From a virus (taxonomy: Duplodnaviria > Heunggongvirae > Uroviricota > Caudoviricetes): a DNA stretch of 64,000 nt. Every line of letters starts with the position of its first letter. Positions within the stretch are counted from its first letter, which is position 1. A program made the position numbers and the translations under genes. The notes under the pieces were generated by a model that was given only the letters and a program-made list of their open reading frames with translations, was not told where the DNA came from and made no database searches. Of this stretch, positions 6,479-25,803 are shown piece by piece. The stretch lies in IMG/VR virus record IMGVR_UViG_3300012942_000032, positions 58,282 through 122,281 of that record; one strand, given 5' to 3'.

Positions 6479-7600
6479 TTAATATGTGAATGGTGCCGTT
6501 GGAGGAGTGAAATCAGAAGTATATCTAGATATACCTGATGTAATACGAAATTCGTCTATATACCCGCTAAAGAACTCATTTAGGTTTTCATGACCACCAA
6601 TTTGATTTATATTCCAAGAACTAGAGTCATTTCTAACAGAAACTTGATCAATACCATTTAAATAAAGTCTAATTTCTCCTGAAATTCTACAAAGTGCTAC
6701 ATGAAACCATTCATTTAGAGGATATGAATTAGAGGTAATTCTATCAGAAGCATCATATAATACGACGCAACCGTCTTTTAGATATAATCCATATGTGTTG
6801 TTATAAATGGATAGAGTTTGATACTTTCCAGATTCTCCAATAGTTGTAGAATAAACCCATAATTCTATTGTAAAATCTGAAGGTAAATTAATCGGATCAG
6901 GATATGCTTGAAGATATGAAGAATTAAAAAAGAAACTTCCAGAACCAAATTTCTTATTATTGTGGCTAATTGTTGACCCATTGGTCACATCTGAAAGAAC
7001 CCATGATTCACCATATAAATCAGATAATGAAAATCCATCTATTTTATCAAAATGAAGGAGCGATTTAGTATATGAGAATATAATCTTTACATCTATCAAA
7101 CAATAATCTGTTGTTATAGGAGTGGAAATTTTCAAAGTAAAATTAGAAACTCCTTCGCTTGATATTGCCCCAGAAACAATCAGATTATCATCGTCAATGG
7201 AAAAATTTATTCCAGAATCTTCAGGCCCAGATACAATAGACACAGAGTAAGGTCCAGGAGTACCAGTTATGGATTTGGTGACGTCAACTGAATTTCCTAA
7301 AGGGATTGTCCCTAAATCAAGTAGTGGACCACCATCAACCACAACAGGCATTGCATAAGGAGCTCTACGTGAAGAAATTACATCATCAAGAATATCTCCA
7401 CCTCTGGCAATAATGTCAAAGACAGAATCCATATCAAGATTAGAAAATCTCCAGGTTCCATCAGAAAAGCTCTGAGTAGTTCCACACCATTCAGAGTTAA
7501 AATAAAGATCAATTGTTGTTACAAAAGGAGTACCATTACGGCTAACAATGTTAGGTGAGTCTCCTCCAAGATATCCAGTTCCTGATGGGGGCGAAATCAT
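6479..7600 (-). CDS. LamG-like (concanavalin A-like lectin/glucanase) domain protein; paralog of the plus-strand structural LamG proteins
   Basis: The C-terminal ...EWFHVALCRISGEIRLYLNG...GYIDEFRITSGISRYTSDFTPPTAPFTY is nearly identical in protein sequence to the C-terminus of 15690..16982. Confidence 0.7.
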   Translation of the reverse strand: MISPPSGTGYLGGDSPNIVSRNGTPFVTTIDLYFNSEWCGTTQSFSDGTWRFSNLDMDSVFDIIARGGDILDDVISSRRAPYAMPVVVDGGPLLDLGTIPLGNSVDVTKSITGTPGPYSVSIVSGPEDSGINFSIDDDNLIVSGAISSEGVSNFTLKISTPITTDYCLIDVKIIFSYTKSLLHFDKIDGFSLSDLYGESWVLSDVTNGSTISHNNKKFGSGSFFFNSSYLQAYPDPINLPSDFTIELWVYSTTIGESGKYQTLSIYNNTYGLYLKDGCVVLYDASDRITSNSYPLNEWFHVALCRISGEIRLYLNGIDQVSVRNDSSSWNINQIGGHENLNEFFSGYIDEFRITSGISRYTSDFTPPTAPFTY

Positions 7601-8040
7601 AGTTTAGATGCTGCTCCTACGGCTAAACGATCACATTCTTCATTATACTTATGACCTGCATGACCCTTTACCCAAGTCCATTTAATTCTGTGAGGTCGTG
7701 CAACTCTGATCAGTTCCTTCCAATAATCTGGATTCTTCACATCCTTGAAGTTCTTCTTAATCCAACCTGGCAACCATTCAGAAGCACCTTTCACAACGTA
7801 ATTGGAATCTGTGACTACCTCAACGAAAGCAGGATCAGAACCAATGTACTTGAAAGCTTCAATGACCGCAGTAATTTCCATCTGATTGTTCGTCGCACCC
7901 TTTACACCTCCAGAACCTTGATAGGTATTAAATTCATCATTTTTAGGGACACAGATAAATGCCCAACCACCACGAGCATGAGGTTTACCGTTATCTAGGG
8001 AAGAACCATCAGCATAGAGTGTATAGTGTTTCATGATCAA
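7597..8040 (-). CDS. rnhA: ribonuclease H, type 1 (RnhA-like)
   Basis: Carries the LYADGSS...GGWAF...NNQMEITAVIEA...VVTDSNYVV...WVKGHAGHKYNEECDRLA catalytic D/E/D/D signature. Confidence 0.85.
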   Translation of the reverse strand: MIMKHYTLYADGSSLDNGKPHARGGWAFICVPKNDEFNTYQGSGGVKGATNNQMEITAVIEAFKYIGSDPAFVEVVTDSNYVVKGASEWLPGWIKKNFKDVKNPDYWKELIRVARPHRIKWTWVKGHAGHKYNEECDRLAVGAASKL

Positions 8041-8279
8041 ATTTCTCTATCAGGTGGAGTTGCAACCTTATACATTCCAAGCATCTCCTTAACTTTTTCA
8101 AGTCTCAAAGTAGCCTGAGGAAATGTTCTGATTGATTTTGCATGCTGTTCAACATAAAGACTGATCTCTTCTAGATCTAGAAGAAACTTTGCAGCTTTGA
8201 TATTTCCAACCGACGATTTGGATCTTGTGATGGTGTCCTTTACAAGTCTAATCTTCTTTTCAATATTACTCGGCTGCAT
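8037..8279 (-). CDS. hypothetical protein (80 aa)
   Basis: ORF track. Confidence 0.45.
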   Translation of the reverse strand: MQPSNIEKKIRLVKDTITRSKSSVGNIKAAKFLLDLEEISLYVEQHAKSIRTFPQATLRLEKVKEMLGMYKVATPPDREI

Positions 8280-8442
8280 GATCTTTAAACATTCTATCTA
8301 GTAACAGGTTAAGTCTTTCCATTTCATAAACAGCGAGTTGAAGTAACCAAATACAATCGTCTTTATTCTCAGGAATCATTCCTAAAGGATTTTCCTCATT
8401 TCTTTCACAAAATTTCATATCTTTCTCCTATATGAGCGCACA

Positions 8443-9363
8443 TTATATGCGAGTACGCTTGTTTCTGCTACCCAAGGGATTAATAGTGATTCTACAATTC
8501 TTGACGCCTTTGTCTGAACGATCTGTCTTGTAGACGGCATACAAGGTGGGTTCGTATTCTCCCAAAATCTCGTCCCCATTCTCGTATGTGTGCGCAGACC
8601 CTTGAATTACAAAAGCTTTCTTAGAAAAATTCCAAACAAGCTTCACATCACCCTGAAGGACTAACTGGACATTATCACGTCCATATTCCTGACCATAGTT
8701 CTTACCGTACACCGAAACAACTTTCAATCTTGTATCTTGAAACTCACGGAACAAAGTCGTCCCTGCAACAAGACCTCTGGGATAAAGTTTTTCAATATCA
8801 CGAGCAAAACGATTGATGTGTTCGTTATAAGCCATGAACGTATCTGACAAACCAGACACTCCGCCCCATTGCTGGAAGTGAATAGGCTTAGATCCGTGCT
8901 TATGGGAGATCCAGATACACTCTTCTCCATTACCGTTGATCAGATGAAAATCTGCTTTAGGTGTACCAGGAGTGCTTTCTGCATGGGAGATATGATGTAC
9001 TTGTCCGCACACATAAACAGGAACAAGTCCAGTTGAGAACTCGCATCTATCAGTGTTATGAAGATGTCTGTTAAGGGCATTCAAAGCATCATTTTCACGC
9101 TTCAAACCATTTCCCTTACCTCCAAATTCAGATGTCTTAGCTAAGTCTGAAAGCTTATACTCGTTACCCTCATGATCGTAAAGACGAAACTGTCTAAACT
9201 CATCTTGAGTTGCATCTAAGATACGAAAGCGTCTAGTGAAATGATGAATTAGTACATTGGCACCATTCATTAATTCGAAGGGAGACTGTTCTTTAATCTT
9301 CTTAAGAATTAACTCTCTACGCCATGTGTATTTGCAGATCTCTGCTGGACTTAACGACTTCAT
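8443..9363 (-). CDS. hypothetical protein (306 aa), possibly a PD-(D/E)xK-type nuclease
   Basis: ORF track. The weak motif ADFHLINGNGEECIWISHK resembles D...E.K. No confident family assignment. Confidence 0.5.
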   Translation of the reverse strand: MKSLSPAEICKYTWRRELILKKIKEQSPFELMNGANVLIHHFTRRFRILDATQDEFRQFRLYDHEGNEYKLSDLAKTSEFGGKGNGLKRENDALNALNRHLHNTDRCEFSTGLVPVYVCGQVHHISHAESTPGTPKADFHLINGNGEECIWISHKHGSKPIHFQQWGGVSGLSDTFMAYNEHINRFARDIEKLYPRGLVAGTTLFREFQDTRLKVVSVYGKNYGQEYGRDNVQLVLQGDVKLVWNFSKKAFVIQGSAHTYENGDEILGEYEPTLYAVYKTDRSDKGVKNCRITINPLGSRNKRTRI

Positions 9364-9914
9364 AATCTACTCCATTGATTAACAAGAATTTAGTTCTTTA
9401 GAACAAATGAACTAAACTAATGCTCAGGAGTGATTTGAAGTCACACTTTGGCTATCTACACCAAAGTGTTTGGAAAAGGCGTCAGTCTGCGACCCTCATC
9501 ACATTAGTACACAGAGTGAGTAACTTCTAAACTCAGGACGTGGGAATCGGCAACGCCCTATACTCTGACACTGGTCTCTCGCGAGAATTCCGCCAGAGAG
9601 TTATCCTTGATCTAATGAGAATAACCCTCACACCTGTTGCCGTGCCGCAGAGCAGGTCATACTTTGATCGCATGTCAAACGATCTTTCATTCACTTATAT
9701 CTAGTTGGTCGCGTTGCGCATATACCAACCCGAAAGTCGAGCTTACGTTGCGAGTTACCAACGATTAGACTTTCTCATCTTTTTCATAATGTAAGCAAGG
9801 ATTCACATCCTTGCGGAAGTTAAGGCGTATTGTATGCGATAATTCACACAATGCAAAGAGCAAGTTTCATAACAGAACCAAAGAATGTGAATACTTGCTA
9901 CGCTGCACGCTTGC

Positions 9915-9960
9915 GCAGTAGCAGCACGCGCAACGCACAAAACCGCACGCACACGGGATC
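9915..9960 (+). repeat. GC-rich intergenic repeat family member (AGCAGCAC...AACCGCACG...GGGATC)
   Basis: Shares the AACCGCACG core and a GATC-ending tail with the copies at 18311-18370 and 22321-22370. Confidence 0.6.
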
Positions 9961-10046
9961 TCCACATTGTAAGTGCTTGTTTTTATTATGCGGATTTTGG
10001 GATTTTTGCGTACACAAGCAAACCAAACAGATCCTGCAGTCAGCAG

Positions 10047-10082
10047 AAAGGCGCAAAGTTTCCAATGCGCCTTTCTTTTGTT
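10047..10082 (+). terminator. rho-independent terminator-like hairpin (AAAGGCGCA-loop-TGCGCCTTT followed by CTTTTGTT)
   Basis: A 9-bp GC-rich stem followed by a T-run on the plus strand. Confidence 0.5.
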
Positions 10083-10377
10083 ACTGATTCTTTTCGTCGT
10101 TTGTTTTCTGGAGCAATTCTTCTTCGTGTTTCTGCTCGCCACCTACTCTTGCGGCAGCCAAGATTCGATACCACGAAGTAACATTGACTCCATGAAAGCT
10201 CTTGTCGATCGCACCCTTCATTGCAGCATCTTCTTCGCCACGCATGTGCCTCATCAGAGCATATTCGATCACCATTGTAGTTTCCGGTGAATCGTATCCA
10301 CATTCTTTGAGGGCACGGAGTCCTGCTGCAACATTGATGCGATCGACGTTGTGTCCAGGAATTAGACCAACTCGCAT
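10081..10377 (-). CDS. hypothetical protein (98 aa)
   Basis: ORF track; lies in a region of elevated GC. Confidence 0.45.
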   Translation of the reverse strand: MRVGLIPGHNVDRINVAAGLRALKECGYDSPETTMVIEYALMRHMRGEEDAAMKGAIDKSFHGVNVTSWYRILAAARVGGEQKHEEELLQKTNDEKNQ

Positions 10378-10380
10378 AAT

Positions 10381-10773
10381 CTACTCCTGCACCTTCCAGC
10401 CCCAGGCGATGCAGCCGAAACGAACATCGAGATCTATATCGTCTTTGCCCTTGATGCCCGATTCATCCGTAATGGAAATGAGTTCTTCACCGTCTTGGAT
10501 GTAGTTGAAAACCCAGAGAGGAACCAGCCACTGATTCTCGTCCCAGCGACCAAAGCCCAGCCGCGTCAAAGCCACCGGATCGGCTGCGCGGAGTTCTTCG
10601 ATCGTGATGCGCCTGGACAGTGTTCCGGTTTCCTTGCCCTTCCAGACATCACGAATCTGTTTCCTGGCAAAAGCGTCCGTCCAGGACTCGTAGGCGGCAC
10701 CTTCTGCGGCTTCCGCCAACAAGCAAAGCTGGATGTGTGCCAGGTAGTTCTCGAGAGTGACCTTGTTATCCAT
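10381..10773 (-). CDS. hypothetical protein (about 130 aa; internal start MDNKVTLENYL... preferred)
   Basis: ORF track 10381..10953. The upstream 60 codons are Arg-rich and low-complexity and overlap the next ORF. Confidence 0.45.
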   Translation of the reverse strand: MDNKVTLENYLAHIQLCLLAEAAEGAAYESWTDAFARKQIRDVWKGKETGTLSRRITIEELRAADPVALTRLGFGRWDENQWLVPLWVFNYIQDGEELISITDESGIKGKDDIDLDVRFGCIAWGWKVQE

Positions 10774-10787
10774 TTTCTTTCCTCTGT

Positions 10788-10985
10788 TTATGAAAGATGA
10801 TTCACTCGACGATCTGTCGATTCTTTCCAGTGATAAGCCCGTTCGTTCCTGCCTTGATTGGGCCGCCAAATGTTTTCTGCTTCGTCGAGCTTGGGCTCGT
10901 TTTCGAACCAAAACCACTCGCCATTGCGATCCATTGCCATGTAGTTTGCCCAACTAGGGGCATGTCGCCATTCAGGCTTCATCAT
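10788..10985 (-). CDS. hypothetical protein (65 aa)
   Basis: ORF track. Confidence 0.35.
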   Translation of the reverse strand: MMKPEWRHAPSWANYMAMDRNGEWFWFENEPKLDEAENIWRPNQGRNERAYHWKESTDRRVNHLS

Positions 10986-11130
10986 GATCTTTTACTCCAT
11001 GAAGTTGTCCACCAATGTTGTTTGCAGGAAGCCAGCAGTATCGAGCAAGATCTTTGTTCTTGCTATCATCAACCCAAATACCATCTTCCAGCTTGATTGC
11101 TCTTTTACAGTGCTCACAGATCGTTTTCAT
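10972..11130 (-). CDS. hypothetical zinc-finger-like small protein (MKTICEHCK...)
   Basis: CxxC at the N-terminus; internal ATG of track ORF 10972..11175. Confidence 0.4.
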   Translation of the reverse strand: MKTICEHCKRAIKLEDGIWVDDSKNKDLARYCWLPANNIGGQLHGVKDHDEA

Positions 11131-11140
11131 GATTGTCCCT

Positions 11141-12232
11141 TTAAGCGTACAGCCGAACCATACGCTTCCAATCACCGTTCGGATTGCTTGCGCGCAGGTT
11201 CAACCCTCGAACCAGCTTGCGCAAATTGATGCTGATACTGTTCCTGCTTTCCCTGAGAGCATCGACGACTTCCAACCTTTCCTGCTTCGAGAGATACAAT
11301 CCATCTTCCAGATCCACATTCATGCAGATCTTTTCCATCATTTCCAGTACTTCATCATCCGTGGGATCGATATTGATCATCAGTGCGCGTGTTCGCAGCG
11401 CGCCATCGGGATCGAGCCTGTTGATAGACAGATTGCTAATGAAGATCACTTTACCAGTGAACTCGAAGTGAGATGGCATGAATCCTGCTTCGATATCTTC
11501 TTCTGTGATGGTCTCGGGATCCATCAGATTCTTCGAAGACTTTGTCCATACCAGCTTCCGTACTTTCTTGGTATCGGTTGCTGCTTTGAACAAGTTTCGG
11601 GAATCGAGATCTGCCAGACTGCCATCACTGTCGTCAAACACCAGAATGTCATCTTTGTGCTTGAACATCAGTTTGTAGAGTCCGCTGGGGCTTGAAGTGC
11701 CCGTATTCTTGAAGTAACCCTCACCATCAGACATTCCGAGTTGGGCAAGAGTTTCTTCCACGACATGCGATTTACCAACGCCACCACGACCTGCAACAAA
11801 GCAAGCGTTAGACGCTCCGCACACGGTGAGATTAACCAGAGTCCTGAGATCTTCCAGTTGCTCATCGTAGGGCATTTTGCTTGCGTTGGGATTGATTCGC
11901 TCGACGCCCTCTTCTTGATTGCTTTGCGCAAAATGGGGCGGAGCTTGTGTAGAAGAGCTTTGGCGGGATGCTTGTGCAGGTCTGCTACCTGCAATACCCA
12001 TGTCGAAAAGAATTTGTTGCTTGTTATGGAGCAATTCATTGATATCAGTAACACTACCAATGAAAACAACATCTCGACCCTGTTTACCGAACAAGTGCGA
12101 GAAGTTTCTGCGCAGATGATTCATTACTCTACTTCTGCGCCCTGTGCTCCATTCCGAAACATTCAGCCTTTGTCCTGGTTCCAGTGCTGCTAGTGCATCG
12201 TTGAAAATCTGATCGAAGACATCATTTAACAT
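11141..12232 (-). CDS. P-loop NTPase (Walker A GRGGVGKSH, Walker B ILVFDDSDG)
   Basis: AAGGAG RBS 7 nt upstream of the ATG of MLNDVFDQ. Walker A and B motifs present. Sits in an island of about 50% GC. Confidence 0.65.
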   Translation of the reverse strand: MLNDVFDQIFNDALAALEPGQRLNVSEWSTGRRSRVMNHLRRNFSHLFGKQGRDVVFIGSVTDINELLHNKQQILFDMGIAGSRPAQASRQSSSTQAPPHFAQSNQEEGVERINPNASKMPYDEQLEDLRTLVNLTVCGASNACFVAGRGGVGKSHVVEETLAQLGMSDGEGYFKNTGTSSPSGLYKLMFKHKDDILVFDDSDGSLADLDSRNLFKAATDTKKVRKLVWTKSSKNLMDPETITEEDIEAGFMPSHFEFTGKVIFISNLSINRLDPDGALRTRALMINIDPTDDEVLEMMEKICMNVDLEDGLYLSKQERLEVVDALRESRNSISINLRKLVRGLNLRASNPNGDWKRMVRLYA

Positions 12233-12381
12233 CAACGGCTCCTTATTATGGATTGCGTGCTGGGTCCTGTGTCCCTGCTTGTGCATATATTATTGCATTA
12301 TCAAGTGATGCTGTCAATCAACCTTTCATGGTTTTACCACAGAAATTTCAGTGAACTTGTGATAGTAAATCTGATCTATGA

Positions 12382-12410
12382 TTGACATTCCTGTTTCATG
12401 AATCTATAAT
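12382..12410 (+). promoter_or_regulatory. sigma70 consensus promoter TTGACA-17-TATAAT
   Basis: Exact TTGACA(12382-12387), 17-nt spacer, TATAAT(12405-12410). A 12-bp hairpin plus T-stretch follows at 12424-12465 before the GNAT gene. Confidence 0.6.
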
Positions 12411-12475
12411 CAGCATTTTATTGTTGGTTAGAGCAGATTTTAGCTTCTAACCAACACTTTTCTGCACCTTACAGT

Positions 12476-12877
12476 ATGGAAGATATAATGAATAGTGTTT
12501 ATAGATACAACATCTATAATGTTCCAGACAAAATTCTTGTCCAATGTCTCCAAATGTTTAAGAGTACTATTACTCAAGACTTTGTCCGTTGCAAGAAAAC
12601 AAAACCTAATGATGCCTGGGTATTTCCTTTCGTTTGTTCTGACAATTGGAATAAATGGGAAGTCTATGGTTGGGGTCTGTTGGAATTTGAAGATGATACA
12701 GGAATCATTCAAATCTTTGTAGATGAAGATCATCGTCGTATTGGAGTAGGTAAAGAAATCTTTAAGCAAATGGAAGAATTTACTCTGATTCATGGAAAGA
12801 AGATAGGATATTTTGTTTCTGATAAGGAATCAAAGCATTTCTTTGGATCCATGGTAAATAAAGCATCAAATGTATGA
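12476..12877 (+). CDS. GNAT family N-acetyltransferase (133 aa)
   Basis: Motif A IQIFVDEDHRRIGVGKEIFKQMEEF (Q/R-x-x-G-x-G/A). Confidence 0.7.
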   Translation: MEDIMNSVYRYNIYNVPDKILVQCLQMFKSTITQDFVRCKKTKPNDAWVFPFVCSDNWNKWEVYGWGLLEFEDDTGIIQIFVDEDHRRIGVGKEIFKQMEEFTLIHGKKIGYFVSDKESKHFFGSMVNKASNV

Positions 12878-12886
12878 GTTATTTCA

Positions 12887-14725
12887 ATGGCTGGATTTAA
12901 AACTTCTATTCTAGACAAATCGCCAGTTCTATTTCTGACATTCGATGGAGATTCTTTCGATTCTGCTAGGCGAACTCTGACTGCGGTTCCTGCTCAGATC
13001 ATAGATGAATCTGGTCTAGGAAATAATGCTATCTTTCATGATGATGGTCTGAGTCCAGATTACTTTGGTTATAGAATGGGCATGCCATCAATGGTAGATC
13101 TAGAACCTGCCGATCAATATTCAATGTCATTTGGATATTATGGTGCTCAGCCTTTACATCCATCTATTTGGGCGAAAACATATCTAGAAGTTCCGCATGC
13201 AGATTCCTTCCAATTTCCTAATTATGGAAGTTTTTCTGTAACAGCAATGATCAATAAAGCTTCTAATGAAAATACCTTTAGAAACTATTATTCATCAAAC
13301 TGGAATACGAATACCCTTACCAGACCTATTATCAGAAAAGGTCTGGCTTTCAAATTAGATTACATTGATCCTTGGTCAGGAAATGATTATCTCCAAGTCA
13401 CCTATCCTGCAGGCACTTTGACTTGGAATGTTTACACAGATGGAACATTCTTTGGAAAGAATATGTTTGTTGCATTCTCCTGGAATGTTCAACAGCAACC
13501 TAATGGGATCTATTCTGCTACTGCAACTCTTTGGGTGAATGGAATCGTTGTCGCAACAAAGTCCCATACGTTCTTAGATACCTATCCTGCATCTAATGTT
13601 TCTAGTCCATGGGAGATTGCAGGAACTGCCGCAGCAAGCCCTAATGGTAACAATTATGATGATAGACAGACAAGTTCACTTGTTTTAGATCAAATTGCTG
13701 TCTATCAAGATCCATTGACAGATGACGATATTCTTTTCTTATTCAAGAAGATCAGAAGCTATGAGAATATGGTTATTGCTCATAGACCGTCCCAATTCTG
13801 GACACTTGGAGATCTAGAGTCTCAGACAAGTAATTCTATGGTACCTTTGGTAGGTTCCCTGACCGGAAAATATCTAGGCGGAACTGCTCGTATTCTAAGA
13901 CAGCAGACTGGTCCAACGAATATTGTCAATAGTTCAGGGACCAGATTCCAGGCAGGTGGTGTAGCAGTAGTTCACGATTCAAGTAATGATGCAAATCCAA
14001 TCTTTAATCCATCTGGTGATTATACAATTGAATTTTGGTTTACAGCCGAGAATGGTGATCAGAGTGTAATGATGTCAATGCAGTCTGACAATTATCCATT
14101 TACTGGTATGCTCATTCAAATGAATACAAAACAGGATGTGTATTCTAATGGAATGATTCAGTTTAAGGTAACAGATAGTTATACAGTGAGCACAAGGGAT
14201 CTAAAAGATGATAACATCAATAGATTCCAATTTAATGATGGCTATTGGCACCATTGCGTAGCTATTAGAAGAGGATCTAATATTGAGCTTTGGTTAGATG
14301 GCGTCCTTCATAATACCACATCTGCACCTGTAGGGACAATTGATAATTCTGGTCAGCTTTATTTGATGGGTATGATGCCTGGAGAATTGAATACGACTGG
14401 TTGTATGTCTGAATTTGTTCTTTACAATTATGCTCTTGCACCAGCAATGATCAGAGCTCATTATTCATATGCTCTGGTTTATCGTATTCATGGTCAGGTT
14501 ACCTTGCAGGGCGTTCCTTATCAAGCAAACGTCAGAGTTTATAATCATGAAAGTGGTGAGCTAATTAAGACAATTCAGTCCAATCAATCAGATGGTAATT
14601 ATCTGATTGATCTTTATGATAATTCGTTGATTGATTTGATGGTTTTAAATACACAAGATAGAAATGTGAGATATCGTGCCTATGGTCCGATTACTCCAGC
14701 AGAATATGAGGATCTACCTGCATGA
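12887..14725 (+). CDS. structural-like protein with two LamG-like domains and a C-terminal beta-sandwich (612 aa)
   Basis: LamG_3-type endings LVLDQIAVYQDPLTDDDI and MSEFVLYNYALAPAMI. Confidence 0.7.
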   Translation: MAGFKTSILDKSPVLFLTFDGDSFDSARRTLTAVPAQIIDESGLGNNAIFHDDGLSPDYFGYRMGMPSMVDLEPADQYSMSFGYYGAQPLHPSIWAKTYLEVPHADSFQFPNYGSFSVTAMINKASNENTFRNYYSSNWNTNTLTRPIIRKGLAFKLDYIDPWSGNDYLQVTYPAGTLTWNVYTDGTFFGKNMFVAFSWNVQQQPNGIYSATATLWVNGIVVATKSHTFLDTYPASNVSSPWEIAGTAAASPNGNNYDDRQTSSLVLDQIAVYQDPLTDDDILFLFKKIRSYENMVIAHRPSQFWTLGDLESQTSNSMVPLVGSLTGKYLGGTARILRQQTGPTNIVNSSGTRFQAGGVAVVHDSSNDANPIFNPSGDYTIEFWFTAENGDQSVMMSMQSDNYPFTGMLIQMNTKQDVYSNGMIQFKVTDSYTVSTRDLKDDNINRFQFNDGYWHHCVAIRRGSNIELWLDGVLHNTTSAPVGTIDNSGQLYLMGMMPGELNTTGCMSEFVLYNYALAPAMIRAHYSYALVYRIHGQVTLQGVPYQANVRVYNHESGELIKTIQSNQSDGNYLIDLYDNSLIDLMVLNTQDRNVRYRAYGPITPAEYEDLPA

Positions 14726-15690
14726 CAGCTTTTACTTGGAATACTCCTGCTCCACCTAGTCCCATGAGTGCAAATCTCTTGAGTAACTGGGTGACTTTGT
14801 TTCAAGATGTTGATGCTAGAATGCTTGCAGCTGGGTTTGTTCAGACTGCTGATACTGGCCAATTAGATATATCGACAATTTCATCATTCTTAAGTAACTC
14901 TGGAGATTTCTTCTACGGTTACAAGATGTATGCTTTGAATGATTCCTTGCAAGATACTTTGCCTGTCTATATCAAGGCGGAATTTGGTTCTGGACCAGCT
15001 GGTAATGCTACTTCAAACTCCGCCTACGTCACACCAAAAATTAGATGGTCTTTCGGAGTATCTAATTATCCTATTCTCCCATCAGATGGATCGGGAAATC
15101 TATCAAGCGCTATTGGTACTGGCACACATCCAAGTACCTCCACCAATGGTGGAGGTACTTTTAGTACCTCCACCAATGTGACTTCTTATTGCACCTACAA
15201 TGAAAATCTAGGTTTTTACTCATTGATTTATGGGCCTGGAATGATTGGAGCATTACAAGGTCTGGGAACTTGGTTCATTCAAAGAACAATTGATGAAACA
15301 ACAGGCCTTCCAAATGCAGATGGAGTGTGCATCTATTACATCAATAATACAACAGGTTCTTCGACTACAACCGGGCAAGCAATAAATTCTATTTTCACTA
15401 GCAGTTCTTATACTTCAGGTGTATCAACCTCGTGGGCACAAAGAGTAGGAGGAATAGCAAATACACAAGAAGGAACTACCGTGTATCTTCAGAGAGCATG
15501 GATGTTATCTCCTCGCCAAAGACCTTGTTATGGTTTAGCTACCTACAATAATTCTAATCTCTCTGCTGGCTCACAATTTCCTCTTCAAACTCTAGGTACA
15601 GAAACTAATAATTTCGTCGCCCTTGGCTCTCTTAGTGGATATCCGGACGGAAGTGGTTTAAGCGCCTCCTTTGCTATGCTTTTTGAATAA
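14722..15690 (+). CDS. hypothetical structural-like protein, Ser/Thr/Gly-rich (322 aa)
   Basis: ORF track; translationally coupled (ATGA overlap) with its neighbours. Confidence 0.6.
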   Translation: MTAFTWNTPAPPSPMSANLLSNWVTLFQDVDARMLAAGFVQTADTGQLDISTISSFLSNSGDFFYGYKMYALNDSLQDTLPVYIKAEFGSGPAGNATSNSAYVTPKIRWSFGVSNYPILPSDGSGNLSSAIGTGTHPSTSTNGGGTFSTSTNVTSYCTYNENLGFYSLIYGPGMIGALQGLGTWFIQRTIDETTGLPNADGVCIYYINNTTGSSTTTGQAINSIFTSSSYTSGVSTSWAQRVGGIANTQEGTTVYLQRAWMLSPRQRPCYGLATYNNSNLSAGSQFPLQTLGTETNNFVALGSLSGYPDGSGLSASFAMLFE

Positions 15691-16982
15691 TGACTGACTA
15701 TATCATCTCAAGCCCATCTAATACTTCACTTTCTGGAGTTCTTAGAGACGCAAAATTATCTTTCTCCCTAGAAAATAGAACTTTCTTTAGGGGAAACGGA
15801 TACTTCGCTGGAAAGATTTTAGATTCCAACAATCATCCTCAAGAAGGTGCGACTGTACAGATCTGGCACAGAGCAACGAATAGCCTTGTAGGAACGACTG
15901 TAACAGATGATAATGGTGATTATACCTTTGTCAATGTTCCGGTTGGTGAGATGTTTGATCTGATTGCTATCGATCCAACCGGAAAATGGGAAAGAAAAGT
16001 ATCTTCAAGTAGATACCCTCAATCAGGTTGGTATCCTGATTTGACGATGACGACTAGAGGAAGATATCTTTATGATCTTGGAGAAAAAGTAAACCAAGAC
16101 GCCAGAGGTTTTGGTGGTAATGGTTCTTATGCTTACACAATTGATAATTCCACTGAAGGTTTGATCTGTGATGGATCATCAGGTCACATCACAAGTGATC
16201 CTCTGTCTGTGTCAGGTGAAATAATTGAATATAATGTTACGGTTGGAGATGGATCAGGAAAAACTTTAAGCAAACCAATGTCATTCAAAACGTATGATGA
16301 TCCATATCATAGCTCTGTTGTTAGTTTGATGCATTTTGATGGCCTGTACTCTCCAACTGTTTTTACAGACGAATTGAATAATTCTTGGGTTAGAGGCGGT
16401 ACGCCTGTTATAAGCAATGCCAGTCCTATCTTCGGAGTAGGTAGCTATTATTCTTCGTCTACTTCTGCTAATAGAATCACATGGACGTGCGGTTCTGCTC
16501 CTGTTTTAGGAGACGGAGATTTTACACTTGAATGTTGGTTTATTCCTAAAGTTCTAACTTCTGCTTCCCAATGGCTAGGAATTGTTAATAGGAGAGTATC
16601 GAATACTAATGCATCTTGGTCTCTTTATCAAGATCAGAATAATGCAGGTATCAATTTTGGAATAACATTCACAGGTCAAGTAACTGATCTAACCTATTCT
16701 AAATGGACAACACCTCTTGTCTTGAATACGATATATCATTTGGCGGTATGCAGAGTAGACAATATTATCACACTGTATGTCAATGGTGAAGCAGGAAATA
16801 CAATTGATGTAGGCACATCAGCAGAATATAAATCTACTAATTCTATAGTTCTTGGTGCATTGGACACTTCCGGTGGAGCATCATCTATAAATGGTTACAT
16901 TGATGAAATGAGAATCACGCAAGGTGTTGCAAGGTACACTTCTAATTTTACTCCACCTACTGCTCCATTCACTTTGAACTAA
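15690..16982 (+). CDS. structural-like protein with carboxypeptidase-regulatory-like N-domain and C-terminal LamG domain (430 aa)
   Basis: FAGKILDSNNHPQEGATVQIW...DDNGDYTF is CarboxypepD_reg-like. The C-terminus is GYIDEMRITQGVARYTSNFTPPTAPFTLN. Confidence 0.7.
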   Translation: MTDYIISSPSNTSLSGVLRDAKLSFSLENRTFFRGNGYFAGKILDSNNHPQEGATVQIWHRATNSLVGTTVTDDNGDYTFVNVPVGEMFDLIAIDPTGKWERKVSSSRYPQSGWYPDLTMTTRGRYLYDLGEKVNQDARGFGGNGSYAYTIDNSTEGLICDGSSGHITSDPLSVSGEIIEYNVTVGDGSGKTLSKPMSFKTYDDPYHSSVVSLMHFDGLYSPTVFTDELNNSWVRGGTPVISNASPIFGVGSYYSSSTSANRITWTCGSAPVLGDGDFTLECWFIPKVLTSASQWLGIVNRRVSNTNASWSLYQDQNNAGINFGITFTGQVTDLTYSKWTTPLVLNTIYHLAVCRVDNIITLYVNGEAGNTIDVGTSAEYKSTNSIVLGALDTSGGASSINGYIDEMRITQGVARYTSNFTPPTAPFTLN

Positions 16983-17003: not shown

Positions 17004-17035
17004 GAATAGGGGCGATCAAGCCCCTATTCTTTTCA
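17004..17035. terminator. bidirectional rho-independent terminator between convergent genes
   Basis: AGAATAGGGGC-gatcaa-GCCCCTATTCT, an 11-bp perfect stem flanked by AAAAG on one side and TTTTC on the other. Confidence 0.75.
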
Positions 17036-17257
17036 GACAGCAGTCAATCCGTAACGATTGCTCTTCACGAACCTTCCATTATCCTTCATCGCTTTGAGCA
17101 GTTCTGCCAAAGCTCCTTCATAGCGATGACGCACTTCAGGATAATCATCGTCGATGACTGCGACCTGATTGTGATTCTTCAGAGCCTTCGAGAATTCGTT
17201 AGCAGCAGCGAATTCCTTACTCTGAAGTTCCATTCGTTTCAGGATATCATCGCTCAT
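17033..17257 (-). CDS. hypothetical protein (74 aa)
   Basis: ORF track. Confidence 0.5.
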   Translation of the reverse strand: MSDDILKRMELQSKEFAAANEFSKALKNHNQVAVIDDDYPEVRHRYEGALAELLKAMKDNGRFVKSNRYGLTAV

Positions 17258-17259
17258 GA

Positions 17260-17544
17260 TCAGTCCTGGTGCCGATGAACGATTTGTTCGATGATGTCAC
17301 CGTACTTGGCATCCTTGGTAATCGGCATCGTGTAACTGCGAGGCACACCATTCGCTTTGGTGCCGCTCTTGATGATGCGACCTTCGACGATCTGCCGACC
17401 GCGTGCCTTGTTGAAGCGATCGCGTTCGTTGCAGACTGCGATGGCATAGGTCACCGTGTCGTCGTTCCAGTTCCGACGATAGCCGATTGTGGCACGTCGA
17501 CCGAAATCCTGACCCAGGTGGGCATACTTGATCTTGTCTTCCAT
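17260..17544 (-). CDS. hypothetical protein (94 aa)
   Basis: ORF track. Confidence 0.5.
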   Translation of the reverse strand: MEDKIKYAHLGQDFGRRATIGYRRNWNDDTVTYAIAVCNERDRFNKARGRQIVEGRIIKSGTKANGVPRSYTMPITKDAKYGDIIEQIVHRHQD

Positions 17545-17545
17545 C

Positions 17546-17710
17546 TCTACTCCTTTGTGGCGGTAACGCCGTTAAGTTGCGCCTTCACCCTTTCGATCAG
17601 CTCAGTTGTGATCTGAACTCCCACAGGGTCTTTGTTAGCCTTCTCCAACAGGCGTTTGTTGGCCAAGGCGTCTACTACATCTTCCAAAAGCTCTTTCAGA
17701 TCTTCGTTCA
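17546..17710 (-). CDS. hypothetical small protein (54 aa, MNEDLKELLEDVVDALANKRLLEK...)
   Basis: Below the ORF-track threshold but exactly fills the gap between flanking minus-strand genes. Confidence 0.4.
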
Positions 17711-17944
17711 TAGCTCATTCGACATATAGTCGCCTTTGTGAACATAGACCTTGATAAGATCATTGCCATAGGCACAGAATTGATCGAATACGAAGCAATT
17801 CTTTTTGGTTCCGTTAGTGAATTTCTTCTCCTGCCAGTAGCCTGGAATTTCTTCCATCATCTTTCCAGCAAGCGAATTACTCACTTCTGCAACCAAAGCA
17901 CCTCCTTCATGACTCCTGATGTACATCATCAATATCCTTCCCAC
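17708..17944 (-). CDS. hypothetical protein (78 aa)
   Basis: ORF track. Confidence 0.45.
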   Translation of the reverse strand: MGRILMMYIRSHEGGALVAEVSNSLAGKMMEEIPGYWQEKKFTNGTKKNCFVFDQFCAYGNDLIKVYVHKGDYMSNEL

Positions 17945-18132
17945 TGTTCATTGCAGTCTTCGCAGTCATAAGCTGCATTCAGATGAATGCCATCAGGAAC
18001 ACATCCTACGCATTTGATGTTGGTACCAGAACATCGGGGACACATCTTGCCCTTACAGACGGTATCCCTTTGGTCTTCTGTGAATGTCCACTCGCTAGGT
18101 CTACTTGGCATTTTCTCTGCACCAGGATTCAA
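17929..18132 (-). CDS. hypothetical zinc-ribbon protein (67 aa)
   Basis: CKGKMCPRC...CVGC...CEDC cysteine pairs. Confidence 0.5.
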   Translation of the reverse strand: MNPGAEKMPSRPSEWTFTEDQRDTVCKGKMCPRCSGTNIKCVGCVPDGIHLNAAYDCEDCNEQWEGY

Positions 18133-18349
18133 ATTCTTCTTGTTGACGATCGTAAATCTCTTTGATCTTGTCGTCGGATGCTTCTAGCCTATATTCAGCG
18201 AGCTTCTGACGACAATCAGAAATTGGGAGGTCGCATGCCCAACAGTGTTCTATCAATTTTTCCGCATCAGAAAGTTTCATGATGGTATCAATCGTTGGCT
18301 GTATTGCGTGCAAGTGTAGCACAACAGCGCAGGGAGTGCAAAACCGCAC
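18101..18349 (-). CDS. hypothetical protein (82 aa)
   Basis: ORF track. Confidence 0.45.
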   Translation of the reverse strand: MRFCTPCAVVLHLHAIQPTIDTIMKLSDAEKLIEHCWACDLPISDCRQKLAEYRLEASDDKIKEIYDRQQEEFESWCRENAK

Positions 18350-18370
18350 GTAGCTGGGAAAATAGTGATC
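18311..18370 (+). repeat. GC-rich intergenic repeat family member (AGCACAACAGCGCAGGGAGTGCAAAACCGCACGTAGCTGGG...GTGATC)
   Basis: Shares the AACCGCACGTAGC core with 22321-22370. Confidence 0.6.
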
Positions 18371-18378
18371 TTTTCACA

Positions 18379-18460
18379 GAAAGCGCGCTGCAAAATCAAT
18401 GACTTACACGGTGGTCAAATCAGCGATTTTTGCAGCGCGCTAACATGCGCTTTCAGTTTT
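18379..18460 (+). terminator. long GC-rich hairpin (AGCGCGCTGCAAAA...TTTTGCAGCGCGCT) with trailing T-run
   Basis: A 14-bp stem nested in an outer GAAAGCGC/GCGCTTTC stem, followed by AGTTTT. Confidence 0.45.
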
Positions 18461-18584
18461 ACCAGAACTTTCCTATGAAATGGATCACCACGCAAATCAG
18501 GCCTACGAACAGGGCGATGCACACCACAGCCCAGATCGCAGTGATCAGTTCAACCAACGTGAAACCCTTCTGGAACTTCTTCAT
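18459..18584 (-). CDS. prepilin-like (type IV pilin N-terminal motif) mini-protein, 41 aa
   Basis: MKKFQKGFTLVELITAIWAVVCIALFVGLICVVIHF carries a canonical G|FTLVEL prepilin cleavage/methylation motif plus a hydrophobic helix. It is the internal start of track ORF 18459..18680. Confidence 0.45.
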   Translation of the reverse strand: MKKFQKGFTLVELITAIWAVVCIALFVGLICVVIHFIGKFW

Positions 18585-18597
18585 TACCTGCTCCTGA

Positions 18598-18810
18598 TTA
18601 CGAAAAACGCCCTTTCGGACGGTTGTCAAGGGAAACCTGATGTTTCTTAGCCTTCCCAAAATTGAAGAATCGACGGCCATCTTCCGTGTAGTACCTGGTT
18701 CCAGTCTTGTCCTTCCTGAACATCATTCCATGGGGAAGACCTTTGTTGCCGAAGGTCACTTCCATCTTCACGTTCAGGATATTGAGGGTGGTACGGAACT
18801 GGCGCGTCAT
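18598..18810 (-). CDS. hypothetical basic protein (70 aa)
   Basis: ORF track; preferred over the overlapping 18647..18877 frame. Confidence 0.4.
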   Translation of the reverse strand: MTRQFRTTLNILNVKMEVTFGNKGLPHGMMFRKDKTGTRYYTEDGRRFFNFGKAKKHQVSLDNRPKGRFS

Positions 18811-19022
18811 GAGATAAAGCTCTCGATGCTGATTTCGACGCCGTCGCTGTTCTTGAACTTCTCACCACGATGAACAATGGTGTAGACTGCGCCCCTGATG
18901 TTCAGGTTCTTGAGAAACCCTTCCAACATCTCACCTGCCGCGTCCGCACCTTCCCTCATGTACTTGGCGACAAAGTTCTGCGAAGTCGCATTCTTGTCGG
19001 GAATCTCGATCGTTATTTTCAT
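18807..19022 (-). CDS. hypothetical protein (71 aa)
   Basis: ORF track. Confidence 0.45.
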   Translation of the reverse strand: MKITIEIPDKNATSQNFVAKYMREGADAAGEMLEGFLKNLNIRGAVYTIVHRGEKFKNSDGVEISIESFIS

Positions 19023-19053
19023 TTCTTGCCCCTGTTAAATCGGAAAGGCTATC

Positions 19054-19302
19054 TTATCGCTCTGGCATCAAATTGATTTGGAGCGATTTCTGTACGAAAC
19101 TCTGATCATCGATCATTTCAACCATTTTCTTAGGATCGCAGTGATCAAGATAATCGTCGAAAGGATCAAGAACACTTCCTGCACATCCATCCCACACGAT
19201 GTTAGGATTGTGTGCAGCAACCCAACCTAAGGCACCTACTATCACCCTCAGTTGGTTCTCGGTCATCCTGACCTCTACGATTTCGTTTCTGATATCACTC
19301 AT
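19054..19302 (-). CDS. hypothetical protein (82 aa; internal start MSDIRNEIVEV...)
   Basis: Track ORF 19054..19542. The N-terminal extension overlaps the neighbouring gene in another frame. Confidence 0.45.
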   Translation of the reverse strand: MSDIRNEIVEVRMTENQLRVIVGALGWVAAHNPNIVWDGCAGSVLDPFDDYLDHCDPKKMVEMIDDQSFVQKSLQINLMPER

Positions 19303-19735
19303 CTTCTTCGGTCTCTTCGCTCGCAGTCCACACGAAGGAAGGCCAGTAGACGATGTAGTCTCGGCCCAGGTTGTCGTAACGTGCCCCTGTGATTCCGAAT
19401 TGAGCAGCCCGCTCGATGATCTTGATGGGATCTTCCCCAGAGATGCCGTAGCAGCGTTCACCGTACATGCACCTGCCGGAATAACCCTCATAGATCGAAA
19501 CATCTTCCGCGTCTCCTTGAAGCGACTCCACCACCTCATCAAAAAGGTTCTTGATGAAATCCTTGTTTTCCTTTTCGTCGCTCCTGGAAATCCGCCTCAG
19601 ACCATGAGTAAGATGGTCGATGCTGTTCTGTATCTCGTCTTTCGACTCTTCCAGCTCTTCAAGAAACTCCACGGCTTGCACCTCGCGTTGTTTTGCCCAT
19701 GCGTTTATAATAACGCAATGCAAGCGTGGAGTCAA
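19295..19735 (-). CDS. hypothetical acidic protein (146 aa)
   Basis: ORF track. Confidence 0.5.
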   Translation of the reverse strand: MTPRLHCVIINAWAKQREVQAVEFLEELEESKDEIQNSIDHLTHGLRRISRSDEKENKDFIKNLFDEVVESLQGDAEDVSIYEGYSGRCMYGERCYGISGEDPIKIIERAAQFGITGARYDNLGRDYIVYWPSFVWTASEETEEDE

Positions 19736-19764
19736 GTGAAGAAGTTAATTATCAGTGATATACG

Positions 19765-19986
19765 TCACTGATTCTTCTGATCGTATTCTTCCACGATTTT
19801 CTTGATCGTTTGCAGGTGCTGACCTTGGGAATAATATAGGTCGCCAGAAGTCTTGAAGACTAGATCACGAGTCTCCAAAGAACGCATCGTTGCGGGAAGA
19901 ACATCAAGTTCAGAGATCGACCTGGGGGTATTGTCGATCTTGCGGAGGGCTTCGATTTGAAGCTCGGTGAGGGGTTTAGCAGCCAT
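19765..19986 (-). CDS. hypothetical protein (73 aa)
   Basis: ORF track. Confidence 0.45.
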   Translation of the reverse strand: MAAKPLTELQIEALRKIDNTPRSISELDVLPATMRSLETRDLVFKTSGDLYYSQGQHLQTIKKIVEEYDQKNQ

Positions 19987-20161
19987 GACACATCTCCAGT
20001 GATAAGATACCCTTCCAAGGAGGGTACGTCCTTCCCCTGTTTTGAGATGTTATTGGTATCGGGGAAACTGGATGCGCTTCTTGATAACGAAGAAGAGGCC
20101 AACCAGGTCAAGAACCAAGACAGCATAAATCGCAATCAGAAGCGCATCCATTGACTTTCTC

Positions 20162-20485
20162 CTACTTGACAGCCTCGAGCAAGGAAGGAGCAACCTTCCA
20201 ATTCATGCCATTCTCTGCCTTGACCTGCACCGTCTTAGCATTGATCTTCTGAACGGTGCCACGAACATGCATCTGCTTCTTGGCAGAATAGAACATGACA
20301 CGATCATTGACCTTGAAGAGCTTGGCGGTCTGGTACTGCAAAGAGTTCCAGCGCTCCTTGATGGCGGCATTGATCTGAGTAAGATCGTCCGTCGTCATAC
20401 TATTGGTGCGATCGAGGATGGTGTTGACAATCTGAGAAGTATTCATGAAACACCTTTGGTTTGGATGAAGGTTGTTGGGCTCCAC
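20162..20485 (-). CDS. hypothetical protein (107 aa)
   Basis: ORF track. Confidence 0.45.
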   Translation of the reverse strand: MEPNNLHPNQRCFMNTSQIVNTILDRTNSMTTDDLTQINAAIKERWNSLQYQTAKLFKVNDRVMFYSAKKQMHVRGTVQKINAKTVQVKAENGMNWKVAPSLLEAVK

Positions 20486-20530
20486 CTATAAGCAAGTGTA
20501 ACGCAAACAAGCGAAGATAAAAAGAAATTT

Positions 20531-20779
20531 CTAAGAGTTATGATCAATCCTTGAGGCGACCATAGCCCTTGCTGTCGCCTCGTCTGCATTGTAAAGCTTG
20601 TCGCAGAAGAAACGATCTTGTCGGCACTTCTCCAGCTTCATGTATGAATAGAAGGCCTGACCCCAACGCAGAGCTGTATTCCTGTGCCTGAACGCATCCA
20701 CGCGACTCTTAGGGAACATGAGCATGATCTGCTCCTTTGATTTCTTCCGTGACACGAACCAGATCTTCCAGAGTGACAT
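20531..20779 (-). CDS. hypothetical protein (82 aa)
   Basis: ORF track. Confidence 0.4.
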   Translation of the reverse strand: MSLWKIWFVSRKKSKEQIMLMFPKSRVDAFRHRNTALRWGQAFYSYMKLEKCRQDRFFCDKLYNADEATARAMVASRIDHNS

Positions 20780-21038
20780 CCAAGAAGAAGACGATACCTC
20801 GATTCCATGTTCTGGTGTACTTGCCCATGAAGTTTTCCAGGGTCAGAGGATCAACCTTCTTCAGATCTTCTGGTGTGATTGCAAACGAATGGACAGTCTT
20901 GCTTTTGAGGATGCTTCCCACCAGATGAACGATATCAGGAAGAGCAATGTCATAGGTGTCAGACACAGGGTAGTGAGCAGCCTTGAAAGAGACGCACATA
21001 TCCTTCAGTTTGGCAACGATGTCATCTTGCAGACTCAT
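20709..21038 (-). CDS. hypothetical protein (about 109 aa, start MSLQDD...)
   Basis: Track ORF 20709..21065, with the internal start preferred. Confidence 0.45.
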   Translation of the reverse strand: MSLQDDIVAKLKDMCVSFKAAHYPVSDTYDIALPDIVHLVGSILKSKTVHSFAITPEDLKKVDPLTLENFMGKYTRTWNRGIVFFLDVTLEDLVRVTEEIKGADHAHVP

Positions 21039-21241
21039 GATCTTCTCCTTACTGTTCCGTACCATTGATTGTCATGAAAACTGATCGAACCTATTAGAGG
21101 ATGACCTTCAGAGTCCTTTCCTTCCCAGTGTGCCTTGACGGGTTCCAGACCTTGATCCCGTAAGAACAGACGAACGTACTGAAGATTATCATCCTTGTAT
21201 TCTATGATTCCATTCTTTTTGACTACACCTAAGAAAGGCAC
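21035..21241 (-). CDS. hypothetical protein (68 aa)
   Basis: ORF track. Confidence 0.45.
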   Translation of the reverse strand: MPFLGVVKKNGIIEYKDDNLQYVRLFLRDQGLEPVKAHWEGKDSEGHPLIGSISFHDNQWYGTVRRRS

Positions 21242-21492
21242 TCGACTCTCCCCAACCTATTCATCAGCCGCGCAGACTTCGGTTCGTGCTTCGCGGTATT
21301 GATGGAACAGATTGTGAAGTCATTCCTGTGGAGCAACCTTCCAAGACGGTTCTCAATGCAATGCACGCAGAGCATTCCAATCTTGGTCGTGACAACAGAT
21401 AACCAAACCTCATCCTTAAGGTAATAGTGTTCGTAGATCTTTCCTGTATCAACTTTGCAATCCAGACACAGGAACTTAGACCTAGATTTCAT
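21229..21492 (-). CDS. hypothetical zinc-finger protein (87 aa)
   Basis: CLDC...CVHC cysteine pairs. Confidence 0.45.
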   Translation of the reverse strand: MKSRSKFLCLDCKVDTGKIYEHYYLKDEVWLSVVTTKIGMLCVHCIENRLGRLLHRNDFTICSINTAKHEPKSARLMNRLGRVECLS

Positions 21493-21892: not shown

Positions 21893-21903
21893 TCTTTCTC
21901 CCC

Positions 21904-25789: not shown

Positions 25790-25803
25790 GTGACCATTAC
25801 CTC

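Follow-up and report, generated by a model that had tools for sequence, protein, structure and literature searches.

In a stretch of 64,000 nucleotides from an uncultured tailed phage (IMG/VR record IMGVR_UViG_3300012942_000032, positions 58,282 to 122,281; in the following called the window), three plus-strand genes at 12887-16982 are embedded among minus-strand genes and encode the proteins p612, p322 and p430. Based on a comparison with related phages, this cassette is interpreted here as the separated front of the baseplate/adhesin module of the lineage, which would be expressed late. We estimate the probability of this interpretation at about 60%. Four proteins of the window carry LamG domains: p612 and p430 of the cassette, p660 of the late module (34397-36379, plus strand) and p373, encoded on the minus strand at 6479-7600 directly behind a gene for RNase HI. 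These are lectin-domain proteins of baseplate and tail modules, a known sort of protein, in an unusual but explicable genome arrangement.

By its core genes (gp6, gp8-like, gp15, terL, sheath and portal), the window is assigned to a T4-like myovirus. The closest cultured phages according to portal identity are Acidovorax phage ACP17 (Busanvirus; 59%), Variovorax phage V45v66 (56%), the Xanthomonas phages BUDD and X1 (55-56%) and the Stenotrophomonas Menderaviruses, among them Moby and Mendera (53%). A megablast search of positions 6000-17500 against cultured phages gave no match and thus no close cultured relative. A protein identical to p373 is encoded on a metagenome contig of 110,955 bp in ENA. 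The window has a GC content of 41%. Its T4-type late module is located on the plus strand from ~33 kb on and comprises genes for gp25-like, gp6, gp7/gp8-like wedge, DUF4815, neck, gp15, terL, tail sheath, tube and portal proteins; open reading frames (ORFs) downstream of the portal gene are taken to be those of protease and scaffold because of the gene order. According to the ORF maps, minus-strand genes occupy 1-12.3 kb and 17-33 kb. Within the clade, the window was compared with the lineages L016, L017/L021 (also L021-L023) and L018, all of which are metagenomic.

The genes of the cassette and of the module to which it is assigned are:

12476..12877 (+), small GNAT acetyltransferase, ORF of 133 amino acids, 9 nt before the p612 ORF
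12887..14725 (+), p612, phrog_31125 (E=8e-199), distant LamG domain at residues 372-522
14722..15690 (+), p322, Ser/Thr/Gly-rich and fast-evolving, overlapping its neighbours by 4 nt and 1 nt
15690..16982 (+), p430, CarboxypepD_reg-like N-terminal domain and C-terminal LamG domain, plus-strand paralog of p373
17033..33158 (-), ~16 kb of small, mostly unannotated genes between p430 and p403 (ORF maps)
33189..34400 (+), p403, similar to proteins annotated as 'tail assembly protein' (phrog_9998, phrog_9600), neighbour of the cassette genes in relatives
34397..36379 (+), p660, two Laminin_G_3 stretches
36419..40254 (+), p838 and p442, phrog_29085, after the LamG genes and before gp25 and gp6

Counterparts of the cassette in related phages

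Homologs of p612 were found in ACP17, Moby and BUDD, where they are located in the late baseplate region, on one strand and contiguous with homologs of the genes at 33189-40254. Downstream of the p612 homolog, variable LamG and beta-sandwich proteins are encoded, not every gene being detectable in each relative. The p403-like gene was identified by tblastn in ACP17 and BUDD and by annotation in Moby. Orthologs of p838 and p442 follow the p612 block in all three phages, and a small p75 ORF, gp25 and gp6 come next in ACP17 and BUDD, where the fetched stretches extend that far. No counterpart of the 16-kb block of small genes was detected in ACP17, Moby or BUDD. Because of this contiguous synteny, 12887-16982 is regarded as the first part of a module whose remaining genes begin at 33189.

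A preliminary description of this DNA had called the cassette tail-fibre-like, had suggested that it is an independently regulated module among minus-strand genes and had proposed to look for it in the late module of relatives. This check was positive in ACP17, Moby and BUDD. The flanking minus-strand genes are present as described, those for RNase HI (identified with PHROGs) and an AAA-like ATPase among them, and the tail/baseplate character of the cassette agrees with the synteny in the relatives, which places p612, p322, p430 and p660 in a tail/baseplate module; p373, beside an RNase H gene, lies outside it. An autonomy of the cassette is not borne out, as it corresponds to the 5' part of a conserved baseplate-region block that is separated from its partners.

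The protein p612 shows 38-44% identity to proteins of the baseplate region of ACP17, Menderavirus and BUDD. Near its C-terminus (residues 531-573), there is a weak, sub-threshold match to phrog_27013, a family of small beta-domains. For p322, no match was found in Pfam, PHROG or PDB, and the best hit of its model in a Foldseek search against PDB had E=0.28. Its predicted fold resembles that of an uncharacterized 347-amino-acid protein of phage Mendera (TM 0.68, E=9e-12). Sequence searches of PDB with p322, p430 and p612 returned nothing useful. A paralogy of p322 and p403, by which a unit of adaptor and LamG protein would be repeated, was considered and dropped after a negative profile comparison.

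In the proposed arrangement, p612, p322 and p430 would be the first three genes of a baseplate-periphery/adhesin module, of which p403, p660, p838 and p442, followed by gp25 and gp6, would form the rest. The ~16 kb of small minus-strand genes between p430 and p403 would make the front of the module appear as an island among early-type genes. The protein p612 is the conserved component and may be particle-proximal; p322, p430 and p660 are the fast-evolving parts, which are predicted to be surface-exposed and would bind host polysaccharide by a lectin-like jelly-roll domain. The analysis shows the domains of these proteins, their paralogy, the synteny, the statistics of the motifs and the rates of evolution; the expression timing, the location in the virion and the binding of glycans are predicted.

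The arrangement is stable within the clade. The p612-p322-p430 block is oriented divergently from the AAA-like ATPase gene wherever the contig reaches, and the junction beside p430 is conserved in L016. The genes differ strongly in their rate of divergence. Pairwise identities within the clade are 75-88% for the RNase HI gene (rnh), 76-88% for the AAA-like ATPase and 66-76% for p612, and only 42-49% for p373, 39-46% for p430 and 35-52% for p322. Between the window and L016, they amount to 84% (rnh), 77% (AAA), 74% (p612), 46% (p373), 44% (p430) and 34% (p322). The proteins p322, p430 and p373 diverge 2-3 times faster than those encoded next to them, which marks them as the likely host-recognition genes of this uncultured T4-like clade. 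From the combination of a conserved anchor with fast-diversifying modular partners we infer the pattern that is expected of host-recognition proteins.

LamG domains and paralogy

The preliminary description had assigned LamG-like domains to p373, p612, p430 and p660, and this was confirmed for each of them. In Pfam, all four exceed the gathering threshold of Laminin_G_3 (PF13385; 27.6 bits), with 56.9 bits for p373, 64.4 for p612, 59.1 for p430 and 80.7 for p660; p430 additionally matches CarboxypepD_reg with 34.1 bits. LamG domains were absent from all other large late proteins of the window. Since such domains, like other ConA-like domains, are frequent on phage tails, the proteins themselves add little to what is known.

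The four proteins were also described as one family of paralogs that is split between the strands. LamG proteins are indeed encoded on both strands, and p373 and p430 are full-length paralogs, which align end to end with 28% identity (E=2e-21). The similarity of p660 to p373 and p430 covers 92 and 255 aligned columns, respectively, mainly in the C-terminal LamG domain (E=1e-9), with a faint resemblance also in the N-terminal beta-sandwich. For p612, the BLASTP comparison with p430 was not significant (E=0.075), and the comparison with a p373/p430 family profile was weak (E=0.0014 over 41 columns). A single recent paralog family of all four is not supported, as p660 matches mainly in the LamG region and p612 not significantly. 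As judged from these alignments, the set consists of two close paralogs (p373 and p430), a more distant paralog (p660) and a distant LamG protein (p612).

The tails of p373 and p430 had been noted as almost identical. They match in 22 of 27 residues, with a nucleotide identity of 69% and different codons at 15 of the 22 identical residues, in agreement with the earlier view that the duplication is old and the protein sequence under constraint. The match is not peculiar to this pair. The ending GYIDE.R.T.G.ARYT.NFTPPT.PF is widespread: of the 120 best database homologs of p373, 65 have the motif RYT..FTPP. In 53 of these, no more than 15 residues separate it from the C-terminus, and it is also seen at the end of internal LamG repeats. 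The shared tail is a hallmark of a large LamG subfamily and, by its sequence distribution, points to no special link between p373 and p430.

Peptide scans of IMG/VR with p430 yielded distant LamG relatives only, and those with p373 none. PHROG matches annotated as 'baseplate wedge subunit' span the LamG domain only and no Pfam baseplate family was hit, so that no homology to a named T4 baseplate protein is indicated. The gp6, gp8-like and gp25-like proteins are encoded by separate genes downstream and are distinct from the LamG proteins.

Promoters and hairpin upstream of p612

The elements around the start of the cassette and its second half are:

11141-12286 (-), AAA-like ATPase gene, Pfam AAA_16 below cutoff
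12289..12317 (-), sigma-70-like promoter, 11/12 consensus matches and TG extension, facing the AAA-like ATPase gene
12382..12410 (+), perfect TTGACA-17-TATAAT promoter, 12/12 consensus matches, 65 nt upstream of the GNAT ORF
12421..12456 (+), stable hairpin between promoter and GNAT ORF, RNA fold -20.2 kcal/mol, z=-4.1, followed by CUUUUCU
12851..12860 (+), late-promoter-like ATGGTAAATA, within the GNAT ORF at its 3' end, ending 27 nt before the ATG of p612
33168..33177 (+), second copy of ATGGTAAATA, ending 12 nt before the ATG of p403

A third copy of the 10-mer ATGGTAAATA ends 46 nt before the ATG of the tail sheath gene. Three copies in the window compare with 0.11 expected, and none of 100 shuffles reached three. 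The hexamer TAAATA was found 20 times on the plus strand and 5 times on the minus strand; such elements are found before the genes for tube and portal and, at a greater distance, before p838 and the scaffold-like gene. The form TATAAATA is present at 63318, behind the scaffold-like gene and at the presumed start of the major capsid gene. Upstream of p612, the leader TAAATAA..TCAA..GAG..ATG is kept in each of the four lineages, whether or not the GNAT gene is present. By analogy with T4, for which a late promoter consensus is cited in PMC3037559, we infer that the motif before p612, p403 and the sheath gene is a variant of the T4-type late promoter. Since ATGGTAAATA stands before each half of the module, both halves would be late genes with promoters of their own, and the cassette is probably late-regulated and transcribed together with the other structural genes. 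It may serve as an example of a conserved baseplate module that is split by a block of small genes, each half having its own late promoter.

The window elements share with the T4 late promoters (TATAAATA, dependent on gp55/gp33/gp45) an A/T-rich element of -10 type without a -35 element, the location mostly on the late strand and the distance to the starts of late structural genes, which is 12 to ~45 nt, or ~85 nt when the weaker site at 62460 is counted. They differ in their commonest form, GTAAATA, while the window contains the exact T4 octamer at a single site; the likeness is one of sequence.

The promoter at 12382-12410, which the preliminary description had proposed as the driver of the cassette, is indeed perfect. 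In the window, three sites with at most one mismatch to TTGACA-17-TATAAT were found (0.78 expected). It is arranged back to back with the minus-strand promoter at 12289-12317, and in L016 and L018 it is reduced to the -10 element. It is unlikely to be the driver of p612, because the late-like motif lies directly upstream of that gene and is conserved in all four lineages. The sigma-70 promoter is predicted to serve the GNAT gene; as one half of a divergent pair, it would most likely give early expression of this accessory gene. At the same position, L016 (5652-5699) and L018 (3861-3906) contain long hairpins that are unrelated in sequence to that of the window, so that the order in these lineages is -10 box, long hairpin and late element, with no GNAT gene. 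The hairpin at 12421-12456 could act as a terminator or attenuator, as a 5' stabiliser or as a protein-binding site.

The GNAT gene

The gene at the head of the cassette was correctly recognised as that of a GNAT acetyltransferase. Acetyltransf_1 was matched with 24.7 bits (cutoff 20.7), and Acetyltransf_7 and Acetyltransf_10 were matched below their cutoffs. Motif A, which contacts acetyl-CoA in these enzymes, has the form R/Q-x-x-G-x-G/A, and the translation contains a fitting RRIGVG. The start is likely the ATG at 12488, which gives 129 amino acids, the same length as in the gene call of the metagenome contig itself. Among 5.8 billion proteins, the only homolog was P0140 (55% identity), which carries PF13508 and is located in the same slot of L021-L023. 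No homolog was found in any cultured phage. L016 and L018, two of the four lineages, do not have the gene and retain the cassette. Since, judged by rnh and AAA, these two are more closely related to each other than to the other lineages, a single loss of an ancestral accessory GNAT gene is the simplest history.

A modification of the cassette proteins by the GNAT, as had been suggested, is not supported by these lineages, and any such role must be dispensable there. The gene is tied to the cassette by position, and the comparison of gene contents indicates that the cassette does not need it. Located between the sigma-70 promoter and the late promoter, it could be lost without loss of the cassette.

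The LamG paralog behind the RNase HI gene

The second locus with a LamG gene on the early strand consists of:

6479..7600 (-), p373, LamG paralog with N-terminal beta-sandwich, middle beta domain and C-terminal Laminin_G_3
7597..8040 (-), RNase HI gene directly upstream of p373, 147 amino acids, phrog_531 (E=8.7e-48), PF00075

The ATG of p373 overlaps the stop codon of the RNase HI gene (ATGA), which by sequence marks the two genes as translationally coupled. Orthologs of p373 with 39-46% identity (BLASTP) were found on four other metagenomic lineages (L016, L017/L021, L018). In every lineage, the LamG gene comes directly after that for RNase HI and has the same orientation, the two being separated by 8 nt or overlapping at stop and start, and the downstream neighbours (DUF7277/7275, then nrdA) are also common to them. 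The ortholog in L018 (P0003, 8814-10604) has 596 amino acids and an extra C-terminal LamG domain, which shows domain accretion in the rnh-linked paralog. An AlphaFold2 (AF2) model of p373 is an all-beta chain of globular domains ending in a jelly-roll, with a pLDDT of 73.6 overall and ~80-90 over residues 200-360. Its LamG domain matches ConA-like domains in Foldseek with E-values down to 4.5e-9.

In T4, rnh lies beside the tail fibre gene 34, and the adjacency in the window was considered as an echo of this arrangement. It was rejected on protein type and orientation: T4 rnh encodes a 305-amino-acid protein of the 5'-3' exonuclease type and is divergent from gene 34, whereas the rnh of the window encodes a PF00075 RNase HI of 147 amino acids and is co-directional with p373. 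A further candidate was CATAAATA as a late promoter of p373 in three relatives; it falls in His-Lys-Tyr codons of the RNase H gene and is uninformative.

The protein p373 evolves as fast as its plus-strand paralog p430. It is an ancient duplicate of p430 type with a fixed place behind the RNase HI gene in every member of the clade, and it would be an additional adhesin or a decoration of the baseplate, expressed from an early-strand transcript. What a fibre-type lectin protein does in an operon with RNase HI is a question that can be tested.

Alternative explanations

Several points weigh against the assignment of these genes to a late-expressed virion module. Fibre-like repeats or trimerisation motifs were not seen, and the monomer models of p373 and p322 contain none. 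The late-promoter assignment is made from motif statistics and by analogy with T4, and transcription from the sigma-70 promoter could continue into the cassette unless it is terminated at the hairpin. The papers on Ps15 (PMC9025141) and Atu_ph07 (PMC6102473) report no proteomic or transcript evidence for these proteins and no usable proteomic evidence, respectively, and the fold matches were not mapped onto the virion proteome of Atu_ph07. The split itself may stem from an insertion of small genes or from a move of the cassette. Plasticity is also seen before the p612 orthologs, with two minus-strand genes in Moby and ACP17 and about twenty in BUDD, and in T4-like cyanophages hot spots of small genes are described near gp5 and between gp46 and gp25 (PMC3037559). 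The cassette could instead be an adhesin/fibre module that is regulated early and independently by the perfect sigma-70 promoter, with the leading GNAT acetylating its products. The full consensus 65 nt before the GNAT ORF and the spacing of 9 nt between the GNAT and p612 ORFs speak for such a module, as does the GNAT ortholog that occupies this position in a second lineage (not a sister), by which the linkage is not unique to the window. It is nevertheless unlikely in view of the cassettes without GNAT in L016 and L018, the loss of all but the -10 element of the plus-strand promoter in relatives, the strong hairpin and CUUUUCU between promoter and GNAT, the location of these genes in the late baseplate block of cultured relatives and the late-like motif directly before p612, which is identical to that of the sheath gene and conserved in four lineages. 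A recent acquisition as a foreign block (moron or transfer from another phage) would fit the position among opposite-strand genes and the GC content of ~32-37% around 12300-13000 compared with 45-58% in the adjacent minus-strand genes. This is very improbable, because p612 is orthologous and syntenic with genes of the baseplate region of ACP17, Menderavirus and BUDD, the fold of p322 matches a Mendera protein, and the arrangement is stable over four lineages at 66-76% identity of p612.

For p373, we lean slightly towards a role as virion adhesin or decoration. In the window, no TAAATA or late-type motif was found upstream of the gene, which counts against this, as a virion role would need an early-strand transcript. 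The protein could instead be an early or middle cytoplasmic one that binds host glycan precursors or proteins, acts in takeover or anti-defence or helps in the assembly of p430-type adhesins. Its early strand, the coupling to (or 8-nt gap behind) the RNase HI gene in all four lineages, the lack of an upstream late-promoter motif in the window, a sigma-70-like promoter for the next gene directly after it and the N-terminus, in which no signal peptide was seen by reading, are in line with this. Arguments for the virion are the architecture shared with p430 and ZC08 gp03, both of which belong to tail modules, the adhesin-like divergence (42-49% identity compared with 75-88% for the neighbours) and the gain of a second LamG domain in the ortholog P0003, as in modular receptor-binding proteins; CATAAATA 51-63 nt upstream in three of four relatives would point in the same direction, although the coding sequence accounts for this motif. 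A cytoplasmic role of p373 is a tentative possibility. It is rather doubtful that p373 is an early non-virion lectin-like duplicate of a structural protein, with an intracellular role (host takeover, anti-defence or adhesin assembly) that the whole clade has kept, and that, in addition, the cassette is under two-phase control by sigma-70 promoter, hairpin, optional GNAT gene and late promoter.

Similarity to known systems

The closest known systems are the blocks of Menderavirus (Moby gp173-gp166), Busanvirus ACP17 (gp068-gp073) and BUDD. Here, too, the p612 ortholog heads a one-strand block, and the fold of p322 recurs in Mendera. The blocks of Moby, ACP17 and BUDD are contiguous between gp5 and gp25, whereas that of the window is split by 16 kb, and these genomes have no LamG gene beside the RNase H gene.

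T4-like cyanophages such as S-IOM18, Syn19 and S-MbCM6 encode proteins with a C-terminal LamG domain that is ~30-36% identical, including GYIDE.R...ARYT.NFTPPT. Their N-terminal and middle domains and their genome positions are different. The records call these homologs 'virion structural protein' or 'baseplate wedge'. Both p373 and p430 are similar over their full length (27-29% identity, E=2e-18 to 7e-23) to gp03 of the Zicotriavirus phages ZC08 and ZC03, which are N4-like Pseudomonas podoviruses and differ in virus family and tail type; the likeness is one of sequence and annotation. In ZC08, the gp03 gene lies between a gene annotated as 'tail assembly protein' and tail fibre genes.

The C-terminal fold of p373 is similar to the arabinan-binding domain 4 of AbnA (5hon_A; Foldseek E=1e-6, TMt 0.63), with E=7e-4 at the sequence level. 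It also resembles the C-terminal lectin domain of trans-sialidase and the region of the botulinum neurotoxin (BoNT) binding domain. These domains show <20% identity to p373 and none is from a phage, so the likeness is one of fold.

A structured RNA and further observations

Between the two loci, the gene-free stretch 9364-10100 (~700 nt) contains a further element, which is probably the more original item of this coordinate range:

9420-9790 (-), structured RNA of ~330-370 nt, core at 9505-9665

The gene-free stretch shows 85% column identity across four lineages, compared with ~50% in the flanking proteins. RNAalifold predicted 180 pairs, 31 of which have compensatory changes. A covariance model with 161 positions was built from the core (window 9505-9665) and detected the RNA in Ps15, IME-SM1, BUDD, Moby and IMG/VR contigs of T4-like relatives. 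The Menderaviruses have two copies, and blastn also matches X1 over 40 nt. In an alignment of 14 distinct sequences, which was fitted to the model and thus favours the structure, paired cells make up 91%; the shuffles gave 69% and the slid controls 32-45%. In the same model-fitted alignment, 36 of the 46 pairs of the core show compensatory changes.

The RNA reaches no Rfam family threshold, and other Rfam matches were at chance level. Its two invariant first helices resemble the Rfam family freshwater-1 below threshold, with 18 bits, where the gathering score is 72. By eye, the RNA seemed to resemble that of RNase P; no Rfam RNase P model supports this. A scan of IMG/VR with 15-mers gave chance matches only. 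In the IMG/VR contigs of T4-like relatives, the RNA is usually found antisense between terS and terL; this position was seen in three such contigs and in Ps15. In the window, the covariance model finds no copy in the corresponding gap (54966-55432), which is 466 nt long and without a convincing ORF between the genes taken as terS and terL.

The gene directly downstream of the structured RNA (8443-9363, minus strand) encodes p306, which belongs to phrog_13937 and has no Pfam match. Homologs of p306 are found in the Sinorhizobium phages phiM12 and phiN3, Stenotrophomonas phage DLP6 and cyanophages; one weak cyanophage match is annotated as type-2 restriction enzyme. A peak of GC content (52-58%) at 10400-10800 stands out from the window mean of 41%. 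It lies over the minus-strand genes at 10381-10985, and many ORFs overlap there on both strands. At the left end of the window (401-1914, minus strand), ARAGORN called genes for tRNA-Leu (taa), tRNA-Val (tac) and tRNA-Leu (tag) and a transfer-messenger RNA (tmRNA*). The asterisk is ARAGORN's own flag; the call has the tag peptide AKTKNVAANDDVYAVALAA and overlaps the listed ORF 1861-2493. In the late module, the gp8-like gene is followed by the gene of a large protein:

46111-51906 (+), DUF4815 protein of 1931 amino acids, phrog_358

This is probably the large fibre or baseplate protein of the lineage.

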